64,000 nt of DNA from the sequence record PV730299.1. One strand, 5' to 3'. Shown here one piece after another: positions 47,991 through 53,342 of this stretch. The DNA is from a phage. How positions within the stretch are numbered: position 1 is the stretch's first letter; each line of letters opens with the position of its first letter. A program made the position numbers and the translations under genes. Below the pieces are notes generated by a model that made no database searches, was not told where the DNA came from, and saw only the letters and a program-made list of their open reading frames with translations.

Positions 47991-48383
47991 ATGCCTATCG
48001 TTGACGAAAGCAACTTGATGGATTATGCACTGAGGCATTATATTGTAGATTCTGTCTCGTGGGATGAACTGCTGGTAGACATTCAGCGGATTTCGCTAAT
48101 TAATCAATCATTGAAGAGATTTGTCCCTGGTAAGAGTCCTCGGTTGATTCTCAATCAATTGATTACTGTCTTCAATACGTTCGAAACAGAGGCCGCTTGC
48201 CGTATGCTCGTTTTGAAGGTGGATAAGCCCCAGTTGCCACGCCTCAAGGCTGCTTTGTTGACATTAGGCGTATGGCGCGATGATTTATGTTCCGGTTCAT
48301 ACGAACCAGATAATGAGCTGATGATGGCTCTGAACAACGATTTGGATGAGTGGAGGAAACCATGCCAACGATCACTGTATTAG
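47991..48383 (+). CDS. hypothetical protein, 130 aa
   Basis: ORF track. Confidence 0.5.
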   Translation: MPIVDESNLMDYALRHYIVDSVSWDELLVDIQRISLINQSLKRFVPGKSPRLILNQLITVFNTFETEAACRMLVLKVDKPQLPRLKAALLTLGVWRDDLCSGSYEPDNELMMALNNDLDEWRKPCQRSLY

Positions 48384-49437: not shown

Positions 49438-49458
49438 AAGAGGCTCCGGCCTCTTTTT
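49438..49458 (+). terminator. rho-independent terminator
   Basis: Stem GAGGC/GCCTC, loop TCCG, then TTTTT. Confidence 0.7.
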
Positions 49459-49525
49459 CATTTCCAGCATTTGGTGTATAATGGACCCGTTCCCCATGAG
49501 CGGAACCTAACTGAGGATACACCAA

Positions 49526-50026
49526 ATGAAATCCATGGTCAAACGTAAAGTCGAAATCTCCCTGACTGCCCATATTGAAATGGTCCAACAACTTATCCTG
49601 GATGCGTATGAAATCCAGAAAGATCGCCAATCGAGGGGAGGTGTGACGGACCCCACCTGTCCTGGAAACATACTGTACTATCGCATGCTGCGCCAGACTG
49701 GGCACACCGCCGCGCTGAAGAAGATTCTGTCCTATGATTTCCAGACAGAGAACAACCTCAACATCATGGGTGTCTTCCATAGCGTTAGTGAACGCGATTC
49801 TTTCTTCCGCTCCCGAGCAGGCGCGGATGTATCATTACCCGATGTAGACAAGAAACAGCACACGACAACCATCTCCCATTACATGGGCACGGGCATCGAT
49901 AAAGCAAACATCATCGTGTTCTCTGATACGTTGCATGACCCCAAGCGCCTTGCATCTGCGCATGAAATGCTGCGGGAAGGCCGCAGCGCCCTCACTAATT
50001 TGACTTTAGTAGTGTTTCTGGGCTAG
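49526..50026 (+). CDS. hypothetical protein, 166 aa
   Basis: GAGGA RBS. Confidence 0.5.
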   Translation: MKSMVKRKVEISLTAHIEMVQQLILDAYEIQKDRQSRGGVTDPTCPGNILYYRMLRQTGHTAALKKILSYDFQTENNLNIMGVFHSVSERDSFFRSRAGADVSLPDVDKKQHTTTISHYMGTGIDKANIIVFSDTLHDPKRLASAHEMLREGRSALTNLTLVVFLG

Positions 50027-50035
50027 ATAGTTACA

Positions 50036-50057
50036 GGGGAGTTTCCTCCCCTATTTC
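50036..50057 (+). terminator. hairpin terminator
   Basis: Stem GGGGA/TCCCC, loop GTTTCC, then TATTTCCC. Confidence 0.5.
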
Positions 50058-50075
50058 CCTAACAGGAGGTGCGCA

Positions 50076-50273
50076 ATGTACAAGTTCAGAATTAACAGAG
50101 AACGTAATTCGTTCAAATTCGGTGTAATCGCTGGGGTGTGTTTGTTCCTGGCGCTCGAAAGCGTTATCGGCCTGCTTACAACACCACAAATGCAGGTGAC
50201 TCGTTACCTTCTTGCCATTATATTTTCTGTTGTCGGTTTACTCTGCTCCTATTTGGGGTGTGTGAAGAAATAA
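50076..50273 (+). CDS. small membrane protein, 65 aa
   Basis: AGGAGG RBS; two hydrophobic helices. Confidence 0.5.
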   Translation: MYKFRINRERNSFKFGVIAGVCLFLALESVIGLLTTPQMQVTRYLLAIIFSVVGLLCSYLGCVKK

Positions 50274-50315
50274 ACTGGCTGCACACAGCAATACTTTGAT
50301 TTGAGAAACTACATC

Positions 50316-50804
50316 ATGATGCTGTTAATGAGCGTTCCACAGAACAAGATGACCCCTGCAACAGAGGGTAAGAATCACTTCAACATCTACAGCCGGAGCC
50401 AGACGGAACTCGGGCGCTTCCTCTCGCATTTTACCCATCATCCAATGACTACCCATGAACATGGTGTGTTTAACTCCATGGAGGGGTACTGGTATTGGCT
50501 GAAGTATAGGGATGACAACCTGCGCCTGCTCGACGGTTATGAGGCCAAGCAATATGGACAGGGATTGGCGGCTTCCCGCGTCATTGTCCTGGATCCGTCT
50601 ACCGAAGAATTCAAGCGCGATATCCTATTTGCAACTAGCATGAAACTCCAGACAATGCCTGAACGTCTGAAGATCAGATTGGCTTACAGTCGCCTACCCC
50701 TGATCCATGCATATGTTCAGAACGGGAAATACAGTTTTCAAAACTCTATGGACTATATCATTGCCCACATTAATCGTCTCCGCATACAAGGAACTTTGAA
50801 ATGA
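50316..50804 (+). CDS. NADAR (YbiA/DUF1768-like) domain protein, candidate ADP-ribosyl hydrolase
   Basis: HFNIYSRS ... LSHF ... FNSMEGYWYWLKY pattern resembles the NADAR signature; ORF-track start is TTG, start uncertain. Confidence 0.5.
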   Translation: MMLLMSVPQNKMTPATEGKNHFNIYSRSQTELGRFLSHFTHHPMTTHEHGVFNSMEGYWYWLKYRDDNLRLLDGYEAKQYGQGLAASRVIVLDPSTEEFKRDILFATSMKLQTMPERLKIRLAYSRLPLIHAYVQNGKYSFQNSMDYIIAHINRLRIQGTLK

Positions 50805-51382
50805 AATTTCTACACACTATCGTCGACACTTCTTATGACTGCACTGCTCATACCCCAGACCGTTCGCCTGTGTTTGTTCTGAACAAACTAGGTGAAGAGA
50901 TCTGTGAACTGTCTGATGTGTTTCATGGCATAGTATCTTCCGAGCCGTTGAATGGCGAAGTTGCTGATGTCATTATCTCTGCTATTGACCTTCTGTACGT
51001 CATGGATTATGACGACGTCCAAATGCGCGGCTCTATGAACAAGGCCGAAATGATCGACTCTGTCATCAACCACATGGCGACAGTGAACGATATTTCTTCT
51101 AATCTGTTGGAAGAAGACTGGTTCCGTCTGATTGATCGTGATCCTCAAAAGCATCTGAATCTTATTCATCACTATCATGGCCGGATTATCCGATTGTGCA
51201 ACCAGCCTTATCGCAGTCAAGACAGATTGGATCATCTTGTCAATGACCTAATCAAGCATGTTGCGCGCATGGGGTGTGGGGAAGGGGCGATCCGTGGATC
51301 CTCTTTGATGGCCACTCGCATTAAAGTGGAGCACGCTATTGAACACAAGGTTGAAAAGTGGCGTAGCAAATTTGGTCTATAA
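50801..51382 (+). CDS. MazG-like all-alpha nucleoside triphosphate pyrophosphohydrolase
   Basis: NKLGEEICELSDV and GEVADVIISAIDLLYVM resemble EExxE / ELADV motifs; ATGA overlap. Confidence 0.5.
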   Translation: MKFLHTIVDTSYDCTAHTPDRSPVFVLNKLGEEICELSDVFHGIVSSEPLNGEVADVIISAIDLLYVMDYDDVQMRGSMNKAEMIDSVINHMATVNDISSNLLEEDWFRLIDRDPQKHLNLIHHYHGRIIRLCNQPYRSQDRLDHLVNDLIKHVARMGCGEGAIRGSSLMATRIKVEHAIEHKVEKWRSKFGL

Positions 51383-51431
51383 GCCGACCCCATACATAAT
51401 CTTGTGTGTTTACCATTGACGGGATAGGCCG

Positions 51432-53342
51432 ATGTCCAACAAAATTGATATTGAACGCAAGTACAAGAAGCTCACTCACGTTGAGCATATCCTACTCCGC
51501 CCAGAGCGTCATCTGGGCAGTATTCGTTCGTCTGTGGGGACGGTGTGGGTGTATGACCCAACTAAGGATAAAGTCATCTTCCGTGACAACTTTGAGTACT
51601 CCCCCGCGCTGATCAAACAGTTTGATGAAATTATCACCAACTGTGTTGACCACAGCAAGACCCCTGAGGGCAAATCCCTGACGGAAATCACCGTCACAGT
51701 TTCCCCGATGAACGGTCAAATCATCGTTGCTGACAACGGGGGTATCCCTGTGGTCAAGCATGGCGTCACCAACGAGTGGCTTCCTGAAATGTTGTTCGGC
51801 TCTCTATATGCGGGATCGAACTTCAACGACGAAGACGAAGAGTACAACAACCAGAAGTCCGGTGGTCAGAATGGCGAAGGGGCGTCCCTCGTCAACGTGT
51901 TCTCCAAATGGTTCCGCGTCACGACTAATGACGGCAAGAAGTCTTATACTCAGACGTTTGAAGACAACATGAGCAAGAAATCTAACCCAGTCATCAGCAA
52001 CGTGAACAGTCCTGGCACATCCATCGCCTGGATCCCTGACTATGCTCGTCTAGGCGTCAAAGGACTTGACCAGAACAACCTGCTGATGATCTATCGCCGC
52101 GCGTTTGAAGTGGCTGCGTGTAACCCGCGCCTGAAGATTGTTCTCAACGGGAAGCAAATCCGGATTGACCGCTTTGGCCACTTCGTTGATTACTTCCATG
52201 CTGGCTCGGCTGTTGACGAAACCGGGGATTGGTCTGTTGCTGTAGCCCCTTCATCCGGTACGTTCATGCACGCATCATACGTGAACTCTATTGCCACCCA
52301 CATCGGTGGTCCTCACGTTGATTATGTTGCCGACCAGATCGTGGCAGCGATTCGTCCCCAGCTGGTGAAGAAGTTCAAGACCGAACTGAAGCCAGCAATG
52401 ATCAAGAACCACATGTCCTTGTTCATCGCTGCCGACATCAACAACCCGCGCTTTGACAGCCAGACCAAGGAGCGCATGACCACTCCTGTCAGCCAGTTCG
52501 GTACGTCGTACAAGCCCAGTGATAAACTCATCCGCAAGGCGCTTGAGTTCGTTATGGCTGGTCTGAGCAAAGAACTGGCTTCCCTGCGCAATGAGCAGGA
52601 TGATGCTGAGTTTGAAAAGGCCAAGAAGGACATCAGCAAGCGGGATTATCGTGAGATTGAGAAGTATTACCCGGCGACCGCCCGTGGTGACCGCAGCGGA
52701 TGCTCCCTGTTGCTGACAGAGGGTGATAGTGCCTCCAATCCTATCCTGAACGCCCGCGACACCAAGAAGATCGGGTTGTTCCCGCTTCGTGGTAAGTTCA
52801 TCAACTGCCTGAACGCCCCGCGCTCAAAGGTGATGAACAATGAAGAGTTCAAGAACCTGTGTACGATCCATGGCGGCGCAGTGCCAGGCCAGCCCCTTGA
52901 TATCACCCGTTACCCACAGACTGTTGTGGCTACCGATGCGGACGATGACGGCATCCACATCCGTGGGTTGTTGATCACCCTGTATTGCACCTACTGGCCG
53001 GAGTACGTCCGTCAGGGCAGGCTGAAGCTCCTGCGCACCCCTTACATGCGTGTGTGGTGTGGTAAGGTGATGCATGAGTTCATGAACAACGCAGAGTATG
53101 AGGAGTTCCTGAAGACGCCTGATGCCAAGAAGATCACGAAGAAGAAATATCTGAAAGGTCTGGGTGGTAACAGCACTGAAGACTTCAAACGTATTCTAAA
53201 CAACCTGGATGCGTATACTACGACGGTCACGCTGGACGATGGTTATCAACAGTCACTGAAGAATGGCTTCGGTGATGAGGCCGCCGATTACCGCAAAACC
53301 TGGTTTAGCGATGTTTGCCTGTTTGAAACTGAGGATGAATAA
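51432..53342 (+). CDS. DNA topoisomerase II large subunit, fused T4 gp39+gp60-like
   Basis: N-terminal LTHVEHILLRPERHLGS and FDEIITNCVDHS resemble the T4 gp39 N-terminus; 636 aa matches the fused form. Confidence 0.9.
   Translation: MSNKIDIERKYKKLTHVEHILLRPERHLGSIRSSVGTVWVYDPTKDKVIFRDNFEYSPALIKQFDEIITNCVDHSKTPEGKSLTEITVTVSPMNGQIIVADNGGIPVVKHGVTNEWLPEMLFGSLYAGSNFNDEDEEYNNQKSGGQNGEGASLVNVFSKWFRVTTNDGKKSYTQTFEDNMSKKSNPVISNVNSPGTSIAWIPDYARLGVKGLDQNNLLMIYRRAFEVAACNPRLKIVLNGKQIRIDRFGHFVDYFHAGSAVDETGDWSVAVAPSSGTFMHASYVNSIATHIGGPHVDYVADQIVAAIRPQLVKKFKTELKPAMIKNHMSLFIAADINNPRFDSQTKERMTTPVSQFGTSYKPSDKLIRKALEFVMAGLSKELASLRNEQDDAEFEKAKKDISKRDYREIEKYYPATARGDRSGCSLLLTEGDSASNPILNARDTKKIGLFPLRGKFINCLNAPRSKVMNNEEFKNLCTIHGGAVPGQPLDITRYPQTVVATDADDDGIHIRGLLITLYCTYWPEYVRQGRLKLLRTPYMRVWCGKVMHEFMNNAEYEEFLKTPDAKKITKKKYLKGLGGNSTEDFKRILNNLDAYTTTVTLDDGYQQSLKNGFGDEAADYRKTWFSDVCLFETEDE

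Follow-up and report, generated by a model that had tools for sequence, protein, structure and literature searches.

The locus considered here raises the question whether a NADAR-domain protein and a MazG-like nucleoside triphosphate (NTP) pyrophosphohydrolase, encoded side by side in a phage genome, work together as one unit. It occupies positions 50316–51382 of a 64,000-nucleotide (nt) stretch of phage DNA (record PV730299.1), which we refer to as the window, and consists of two genes on the + strand: ORF-A (50316..50804, 162 amino acids (aa)) and ORF-B (50801..51382, 193 aa). The initial annotation, made from the sequence alone, had suggested that the pair could be a counter-defence unit or a nucleotide-pool sanitiser. 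On balance, and with moderate confidence, we favour the reading that ORF-A is an orphan His-type NADAR removing ADP-ribose (ADPr) from guanine (G-ADPr), that ORF-B is a separate NTP pyrophosphohydrolase, and that the two are neighbours and no obligate two-component system. The reality of the genes, the folds, the homology and the conservation of catalytic residues are direct results; substrates, counter-defence role and functional independence we infer. Both genes belong to known families and do not make up a new kind of system.

ORF-A and ORF-B are genuine conserved genes and not chance open reading frames. Their starts and stops are identical in the public annotation of Escherichia phage AV101, which is classified in the Ackermannviridae, Aglimvirinae. 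At the protein level ORF-A matches 582 phage records and 1,838 cluster representatives (E ≤ 1e-3), and ORF-B matches 286 phage records. The region 49500–51450 of this Ackermannviridae phage shares 99% identity with Escherichia phages YX22 and AV101 and 80–96% with other Ackermannviridae such as Agtrevirus, Limestonevirus and Enterobacter phage EspM4VN. The start codon of ORF-B lies on the stop codon of ORF-A, and positions 50801..50804 (+) indeed read ATGA, so that both the reading frames and the ATGA coupling proposed earlier were borne out, in agreement with the gene boundaries of AV101. The same 4-nt overlap is seen in Serratia phage 2050H1.

The closest functionally characterised relative of ORF-A that we could identify is gp30.3 of phage T4, renamed AdfN, a DNA ADP-ribosylglycohydrolase that allows T-even phages to escape DarTG1 and in which residues E36 and K43 have been functionally tested (PMC11825919). 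Both ORF-A (2.5e-52) and T4 gp30.3 (9e-51) match phrog_652. Searched against Pfam and NCBIfam, ORF-A matched no family at E ≤ 1, PF08719 and PF08010 included; PF08010 scores T4 gp30.3 at 4.6e-71 and detects all gp30.3 relatives. No NADAR chain was found among PDB sequences with either a single-sequence or a profile search, and no ORF-A homologue carries a precomputed Pfam domain. A narrow hidden Markov model of ORF-A gave about 10 bits against T4 gp30.3 alone, and profile–profile comparison was required to establish the relationship. When the ORF-A family was compared by hhalign with an AdfN-family alignment of 32 sequences, each with PF08010, the match had a probability of 96.2% (E 2.8e-9) over 136 columns at about 20% identity. 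By fold, ORF-A falls within the NADAR superfamily (YbiA fold), with 14–17% identity to solved NADARs. It is a standalone core NADAR domain preceded by an N-terminal extension of about 10–20 residues, which is conserved within Ackermannviridae. Judged by sequence, ORF-A thus belongs to a clade that is sister to, and divergent from, the gp30.3-type, His-type phage NADARs, within phrog_652 and outside the Pfam model. The NADAR identity given in the initial annotation is correct; the Pfam check for PF08719 that it named gave no match.

The motif strings from which a NADAR had been proposed are all found in ORF-A: F22-N-I-Y25-S26, L36-S-H-F39 and F52-N-S-M-E56-G-Y-W-Y-W-L-K63. Among the 150 family representatives used for column statistics, N23, Y25, F52, E56 and W59 are present in every sequence (150/150), followed by S26 (149/150), H131 (147/150) and F39 (144/150). 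In the hhalign alignment E56 is paired with T4 E36, K63 with T4 K43 and H131 with T4 H123, and the spacing from Glu to Lys is +7 in both proteins. The codon of E56, the predicted ribose-binding catalytic Glu, is located at 50481..50483 (+), and that of K63, the predicted phosphate-binding Lys, at 50502..50504 (+). This Lys, important in the NADARs tested, is kept in the lineage of the window; elsewhere in the clade the position is mostly G, S or L. H131 (codon 50706..50708, +) stands at the start of a predicted strand (132–135) and is the last-strand residue that marks phage-type NADARs: this position is Glu in YbiA, Asp in DarG1 and His in phage NADARs (PMC11125620, PMC11543638). T4 E36 has been equated with E43 of the Phytophthora NADAR (PMC11825919, PMC11543638), and K50 of the latter and T4 K43, the counterparts of K63, coordinate the ADP-ribose phosphates. 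If ORF-A works like the solved NADARs, the distal ribose would be held in place by E56 and the diphosphate bound by K63, with H131 standing in for the last-strand Glu or Asp.

What such an enzyme might do in an infected cell is suggested by its tested relatives. ADP-ribose on guanine is removed by all tested NADAR branches, and ADP-ribose on cytidine or thymidine is not removed by the His-type (T4) and Asp-type (DarG1) enzymes (PMC12945103, PMC11825919). NADARs acquired independently by T5-like and rV5-like phages also neutralise DarT1 (PMC11825919). No DarT1 gene lies next to ORF-A, whose neighbours encode a 65-aa membrane protein and ORF-B, and no match resembling an ADP-ribosyltransferase (ART) was seen in the flanking genes. 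ORF-A has no toxin neighbour and is therefore an orphan, and since the tested branches act on G-ADPr, a guanine-ADPr glycohydrolase that shields the nucleic acid of the phage from DarT1-type enzymes is favoured. From homology at about 20% identity, ORF-A would most likely hydrolyse the N-glycosidic bond that joins ADP-ribose to guanine in phage DNA, and perhaps also in RNA. The enzymes countered could be DarT1-type or pierisin-like ADP-ribosyltransferases of the host; removal of the ADP-ribose would restore replication, and ORF-A would mimic an antitoxin while lacking a toxin partner.

Comparison with the known systems places ORF-A nearest to T4 AdfN (PF08010; PMC11825919). Like ORF-A, AdfN belongs to phrog_652, is a single core domain of about 150–160 aa with the Glu/Lys/His triad, is an orphan and overlaps its downstream gene by 4 nt. 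Unlike AdfN, ORF-A is missed by PF08010 and PF08719, and its clade has a signature of its own, has mostly lost the Lys and is frequently fused to Macro, SLOG or DUF4326 domains; the genomic location and the downstream partner (gp30.2 in T4, ORF-B here) differ as well. DarG1 of the DarTG1 system (Geobacter/Trichlorobacter lovleyi, 8bat; PMC11543638) has Asp in the last strand where ORF-A has His, and its N-terminal helix and beta-sheet extension (PMC12945103) is absent from ORF-A. In E. coli YbiA (2b3w) and the Phytophthora nicotianae NADAR (8bau), which ORF-A resembles at the 14–17% identity given above, the last-strand residue is Glu. The YbiA/NADAR families also remove ADP-ribose from cytidine, and YbiA has a role with riboflavin intermediates (PMC12945103, PMC11125620); neither would be expected of a His-type enzyme.

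Phage NADARs have only recently been shown to be orphan antitoxins against DarTG1, the representatives tested so far being T4, one member of the Markadamsvirinae and one of the Vequintavirinae. Our results extend the His-type phage NADAR branch to the whole of the Ackermannviridae, which include biocontrol phages for Salmonella, E. coli O157, Klebsiella and Dickeya. For host-range work this predicts that Ackermannviridae should resist DarTG1 via ORF-A.

The clade of ORF-A is very large (at least 1,838 sequence clusters), lacks a Pfam model and also occurs in jumbo and marine phages. Its signature is H21-x-N23-x-Y25-S26, E-G-Y-W-Y-W, A77-K78, K110 and L-P-x-x-H131-x-Y133, and two clade-specific lysines are nearly invariant, K110 in 149/150 and K78 in 145/150 representatives. 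Relatives longer than 200 aa make up 68 of the 150 and are multidomain proteins. Their extra domains are DUF4326 (12), Macro (9), DUF488-N3a (4) and a canonical NADAR (1), together with the SLOG-type domains YAcAr (6), DprA-like (5), YpsA (2) and LDcluster4 (1). The same set of viral NADAR architectures was previously described by Iyer et al. (PMC9503650), whose survey probably included the ORF-A clade among its NADARs. One metagenomic protein of 1,415 aa (P0173) combines a canonical PF08719 NADAR (10–143), an ORF-A-type NADAR (550–694) and DUF4326, an architecture which suggests that the two types of NADAR are non-redundant. In curated annotations, members of the clade are called hypothetical or, wrongly, 'virion structural protein'. 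The latter label, which some ORF-A homologues carry, is unsupported, as the virion proteome of LIMEstone1, with 39 proteins, includes neither ORF10 nor ORF11.

Several points weigh against a G-ADPr-removing ORF-A that functions independently of ORF-B. ORF-A stands at a long distance from the enzymes tested so far: it escapes every Pfam, NCBIfam and PDB-sequence model, and shares 14–17% identity with the solved NADARs and about 20% with the AdfN profile. In the wider clade the phosphate-binding Lys is not retained, K110 and K78 being nearly invariant there instead, and this pattern hints at a different binding mode or substrate. T4 AdfN is fully active only in T-even infections (PMC11825919), and the activity may thus depend on context. 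In the literature searched, no report linking DarTG or AdfN to Ackermannviridae was found, and a 2024 review of the Ackermannviridae makes no mention of NADAR, DarT, MazG or dUTPase. The two genes keep their 4-nt overlap even where ORF-B has fallen to 26% identity, as would fit some degree of selection for co-expression. Finally, soluble ADP-ribose derivatives are, in the argument of Iyer et al. (PMC9503650), the targets of most phage NADARs, a view that the Macro, SLOG and DUF4326 fusions fit equally well.

Applied to ORF-A, the proposal of Iyer et al. (PMC9503650) for most phage NADARs would mean that the enzyme's main substrates are soluble molecules derived from ADP-ribose rather than ADP-ribosylated DNA, and that it so blunts host signalling based on NAD or ADPr. 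Candidate substrates would be, for example, immune signals built on cyclic or linear ADPr, or by-products of RNA repair that derive from NAD. Small ADPr derivatives are the presumed substrates of the Macro, SLOG and DUF4326 domains to which the clade is fused, and most members of the clade have lost the phosphate-binding Lys and share the nearly invariant K110 instead; these two features favour soluble substrates modestly, and the pairing of both NADAR types in the 1,415-aa protein likewise implies non-redundant specificities. Against this stands the finding that G-ADPr is cleared from DNA, and DarTG1 countered, by every NADAR branch tested so far, among them T4 AdfN and two phage NADARs that were acquired independently (PMC11825919, PMC11125620). 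All three residues required for G-ADPr removal are moreover kept in ORF-A. We consider it unlikely that soluble molecules are the main substrate, and continue to favour G-ADPr.

The target could also be a modification made by the phage itself, in that ORF-A might reverse or limit ADP-ribosylation by an Alt/Mod-like ADP-ribosyltransferase of the phage, which would be self-regulation and not counter-defence. T4-like phage NADARs are expressed together with ARTs according to Iyer et al. (PMC9503650). In PQ306799, a 95%-identical relative, a gene at 76672–77175, beyond the part of the genome corresponding to the window, is annotated as 'RNA polymerase ADP-ribosylase'; its 167-aa product matches the C-terminal part of phrog_832, which bears that name, with E 1e-12. 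If this ART is real, the phage has an ADP-ribosyltransferase of its own as well as a NADAR. However, the ART assignment is weak, with no Pfam match, and the gene lies about 69 kb from the ORF-A homologue. NADARs cleave linkages between ADP-ribose and bases, and are not known to cleave the arginine-ADPr made by Alt and Mod enzymes. Alt, ModA and ModB are encoded by T4 as well, and its NADAR was nevertheless shown to work against host DarT1 (PMC11825919). We give the self-regulation of an own ART very little credence.

We now turn to ORF-B, which had been described as MazG-like. ORF-B matches phrog_1247 'MazG-like pyrophosphatase' at 1.6e-35, and no Pfam or NCBIfam family at E ≤ 1 (MazG, MazG-like, dUTPase_2 and PRA-PH, with PF08761 included). 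Its AlphaFold2 (AF2) model, with a mean confidence score (pLDDT) of 93.3, is all-helical with nine helices and no strands. The nearest folds are dimeric dUTPases, and ORF-B has the fold of the dimeric d(C/U)TPases. Matches in a viral structure library (BFVD) were weak, with template modelling (TM) scores of about 0.5, and comprised phage NTP pyrophosphohydrolases and dUTPases, including a putative dUTPase of phage PhiW-14. Compared with the dimeric dUTPases (C. jejuni 1w2y, staphylococcal phage phiDI 5myd, PF08761), ORF-B is only 9–14% identical and gives no PF08761 match at E ≤ 1. The sole match to a PDB sequence, which was weak (E 0.16–0.29), is MazZ of cyanophage S-2L (7ody), over the EExxE and ExxD helices. 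These helices align residue for residue, and ORF-B belongs to the same superfamily as the MazG/MazZ-type enzymes.

The predicted metal-binding residues of ORF-B are fully conserved. E32, E33 and E36 (codons 50894..50908, +) form an EExxE motif that aligns with EEigE of MazZ, and E53 to D56 (50957..50968, +) form an ExxD motif that aligns with EvaD; together with E83 and D86 these residues are invariant in the 22 members of the family. Conserved basic residues are R128, R131, R138, K183, K186, R188 and K190. True dUTPases have five catalytic motifs, and a His-Phe deoxyribose clamp in motif IV gives specificity for deoxyuridine (PMC5608427). W107-F108 and H124, conserved in the family alignment, are candidate residues of ORF-B for such motifs. 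ORF-B is therefore best placed among the all-alpha NTP pyrophosphohydrolases, in the structural class of the dimeric dUTPases, and its predicted metal site is intact. It would depend on divalent metal and cleave a (deoxy)nucleoside triphosphate to the monophosphate and pyrophosphate. 'MazG-like' is correct at the level of the superfamily, but 'dimeric-dUTPase-like' is the better description.

The phage family itself points to a possible task for such an enzyme. In Ackermannviridae such as ViI, thymidine is partly replaced by 5-(2-aminoethoxy)methyl-2′-deoxyuridine (5-NeOmdU), which is derived from 5-hydroxymethyl-2′-deoxyuridine (5-hmdU) (PMC5889632, PMC8989533). ORF-B might be a nucleotide-pool enzyme for this hypermodification, for instance a dTTPase or dUTPase whose activity reduces competing dTTP or provides dUMP, and its adjacency to the NADAR would be incidental. 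In line with this, its nearest folds are the dimeric dUTPases, its weak structural matches include the putative dUTPase of PhiW-14, a hypermodifying phage, and at the BLAST level ORF-B is confined to the Ackermannviridae, a family with hypermodified thymidine (PMC5889632, PMC8989533). However, PQ306799 already has a dimeric dUTPase with a PF08761 match (E 6e-9; phrog_173), encoded beside a deoxynucleoside monophosphate kinase and a thymidylate-synthase homologue, and ORF-B shows no sequence similarity to that protein (hhalign 0.1%). Unlike the PF08761 gene, ORF-B lies outside any nucleotide-metabolism cluster, and the papers on hypermodification do not mention a pyrophosphatase (PMC5889632, PMC8989533). 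The natural candidate for pool control in hypermodification is the PF08761 dUTPase. The pool-sanitising role suggested in the initial annotation is conceivable but not favoured by context, and we regard a part for ORF-B in hypermodification as a tentative, rather doubtful explanation.

A third MazG-like protein of PQ306799 (phrog_2144, 290 aa) adjoins the regA and clamp-loader genes. The lineage thus encodes three separate all-alpha NTP pyrophosphohydrolase-like proteins without detectable mutual similarity (L007 33945–36108 and L014 35937–36809 for the two outside the window), only one of which has an obvious role. ORF-B was considered as a paralogue of the other two, and no similarity was detectable in comparisons of a profile with a single sequence each, which have limited power.

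With the two proteins assigned, we return to the question whether they form a unit. Co-expression of ORF-A and ORF-B is likely. A Shine-Dalgarno-like AAGGAA lies within the 3′ end of ORF-A (50788..50793, +) and could serve ORF-B, and the two genes would be co-transcribed and translationally coupled through their neighbourhood in a compact block that is syntenic among Ackermannviridae. Functional dependence, which the initial annotation had implied by treating the pair as a coupled unit, is unsupported: overlaps are common, ORF-A occurs without ORF-B, and fusions to NTP pyrophosphohydrolases are not found among 68 multidomain relatives.

A two-enzyme unit could work in either of two ways. The NADAR could free ADP-ribose or a nucleotide adduct and the pyrophosphohydrolase destroy the product, or ORF-B could be an accessory factor needed for full activity of the NADAR. 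The 4-nt coupling reaches from Aglimvirinae as far as Miltonvirus, whose ORF-B is the one with the 26% identity noted above. T4 AdfN, whose gene is likewise coupled by 4 nt to the one downstream, reaches full activity only in T-even infection, possibly with the help of another phage protein (PMC11825919), and because of this a lineage-specific NADAR partner stays conceivable. Moreover, in Pseudomonas phage Amme-3 a MazG-like gene lies about 1 kb away from the ORF-A homologue, but this gene scores only 5.9 bits against the ORF-B profile. The whole block from rIIB to topoisomerase is syntenic across the family, and the adjacency of ORF-A and ORF-B is therefore inherited with it. Erwinia phage Bue1 (Nezavisimistyvirus) has ORF-A directly upstream of topoisomerase, without ORF-B. 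In the Vibrio Ackermannviridae the ORF-A homologue follows nrdD and nrdG and has no ORF-B-like neighbour, and searches with the ORF-B profile found none in three metagenomic phage contexts. None of the 68 multidomain relatives carries an NTP pyrophosphohydrolase fusion (0/68). Overlaps of exactly 4 nt are found at 12/64 same-strand junctions (19%), and overlaps of any length at 27/64, in the first 50 kb of the relative. In T4, too, the downstream gene product, gp30.2 (phrog_420), is unrelated to ORF-B. We consider a two-enzyme unit very unlikely. Combining it with a functionally distinct ORF-A clade, whose substrate would be an ADPr-derived immune signal or another base or RNA adduct and not G-ADPr DNA, and in which ORF-B would be the accessory factor of a two-step disposal unit in Ackermannviridae, gives a reading that we hold to be highly improbable.

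Two of the genomes used in this comparison deserve a closer description. Amme-3 is an unrelated 97-kb phage; its annotated MazG-like gene lies about 1 kb upstream of the ORF-A homologue, and a DprA-like (SLOG) gene is found about 2.4 kb from that homologue (L005 1–3435). In T4, gene 30.2 overlaps adfN by 4 nt (L002 9475–10766), and its product has a weak polynucleotide-kinase-like PHROG match (E 0.003) and no Pfam match. A NADAR and downstream-gene pair shared with T4 was rejected, the comparison of gp30.2 with ORF-B yielding 0.1% in hhalign. gp30.2 itself could be a candidate for the T-even factor apparently needed by AdfN.

On the + strand, the order of genes around the pair is rIIB, several small genes, a 'histone-like' gene (phrog_4164), the gene for the 65-aa membrane protein, ORF-A, ORF-B and the genes for the large and then the medium subunit of topoisomerase II. 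In a consensus scan, the best sigma-70-like match of the region was TTTTCA and TATAAT with a 16-nt spacer at 49455..49482 (+), which agrees with the consensus at 10/12 positions and is a consensus match only. This promoter-like site lies upstream of the histone-like gene and may drive the histone-like, small membrane protein, ORF-A and ORF-B genes. Between this site and the topoisomerase gene, the stretch from ORF-B onwards included, no convincing + strand terminator was seen.

Among the other genes of the block, the one at 49526–50026 of the window, preceded by the promoter-like site, encodes a 'histone family DNA-binding' protein that matches phrog_4164 with E 2e-76 and has no Pfam or NCBIfam match. 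At 47991–48383 of the window, a 130-aa protein matches DUF7207 (PF23837, E 2e-26); its gene is conserved between rIIB and the gene for a Hoc-like Ig-domain structural protein. Between the genes for the two topoisomerase II subunits, AV101 has a 445-bp insertion (L001 9842–10286) that is annotated as a 148-aa hypothetical protein and that is absent by blastn from the window (about 53340) and from Salmonella phage CECAV_050. The 49-nt spacer between ORF-B and the gene for the large subunit (51383–51431), which has no insert in the window, is where free-standing homing endonucleases have inserted in relatives: it holds 844 bp in CECAV_050 (L007 8416–9259) and F-LimI in LIMEstone1 (L016 2321–2886).

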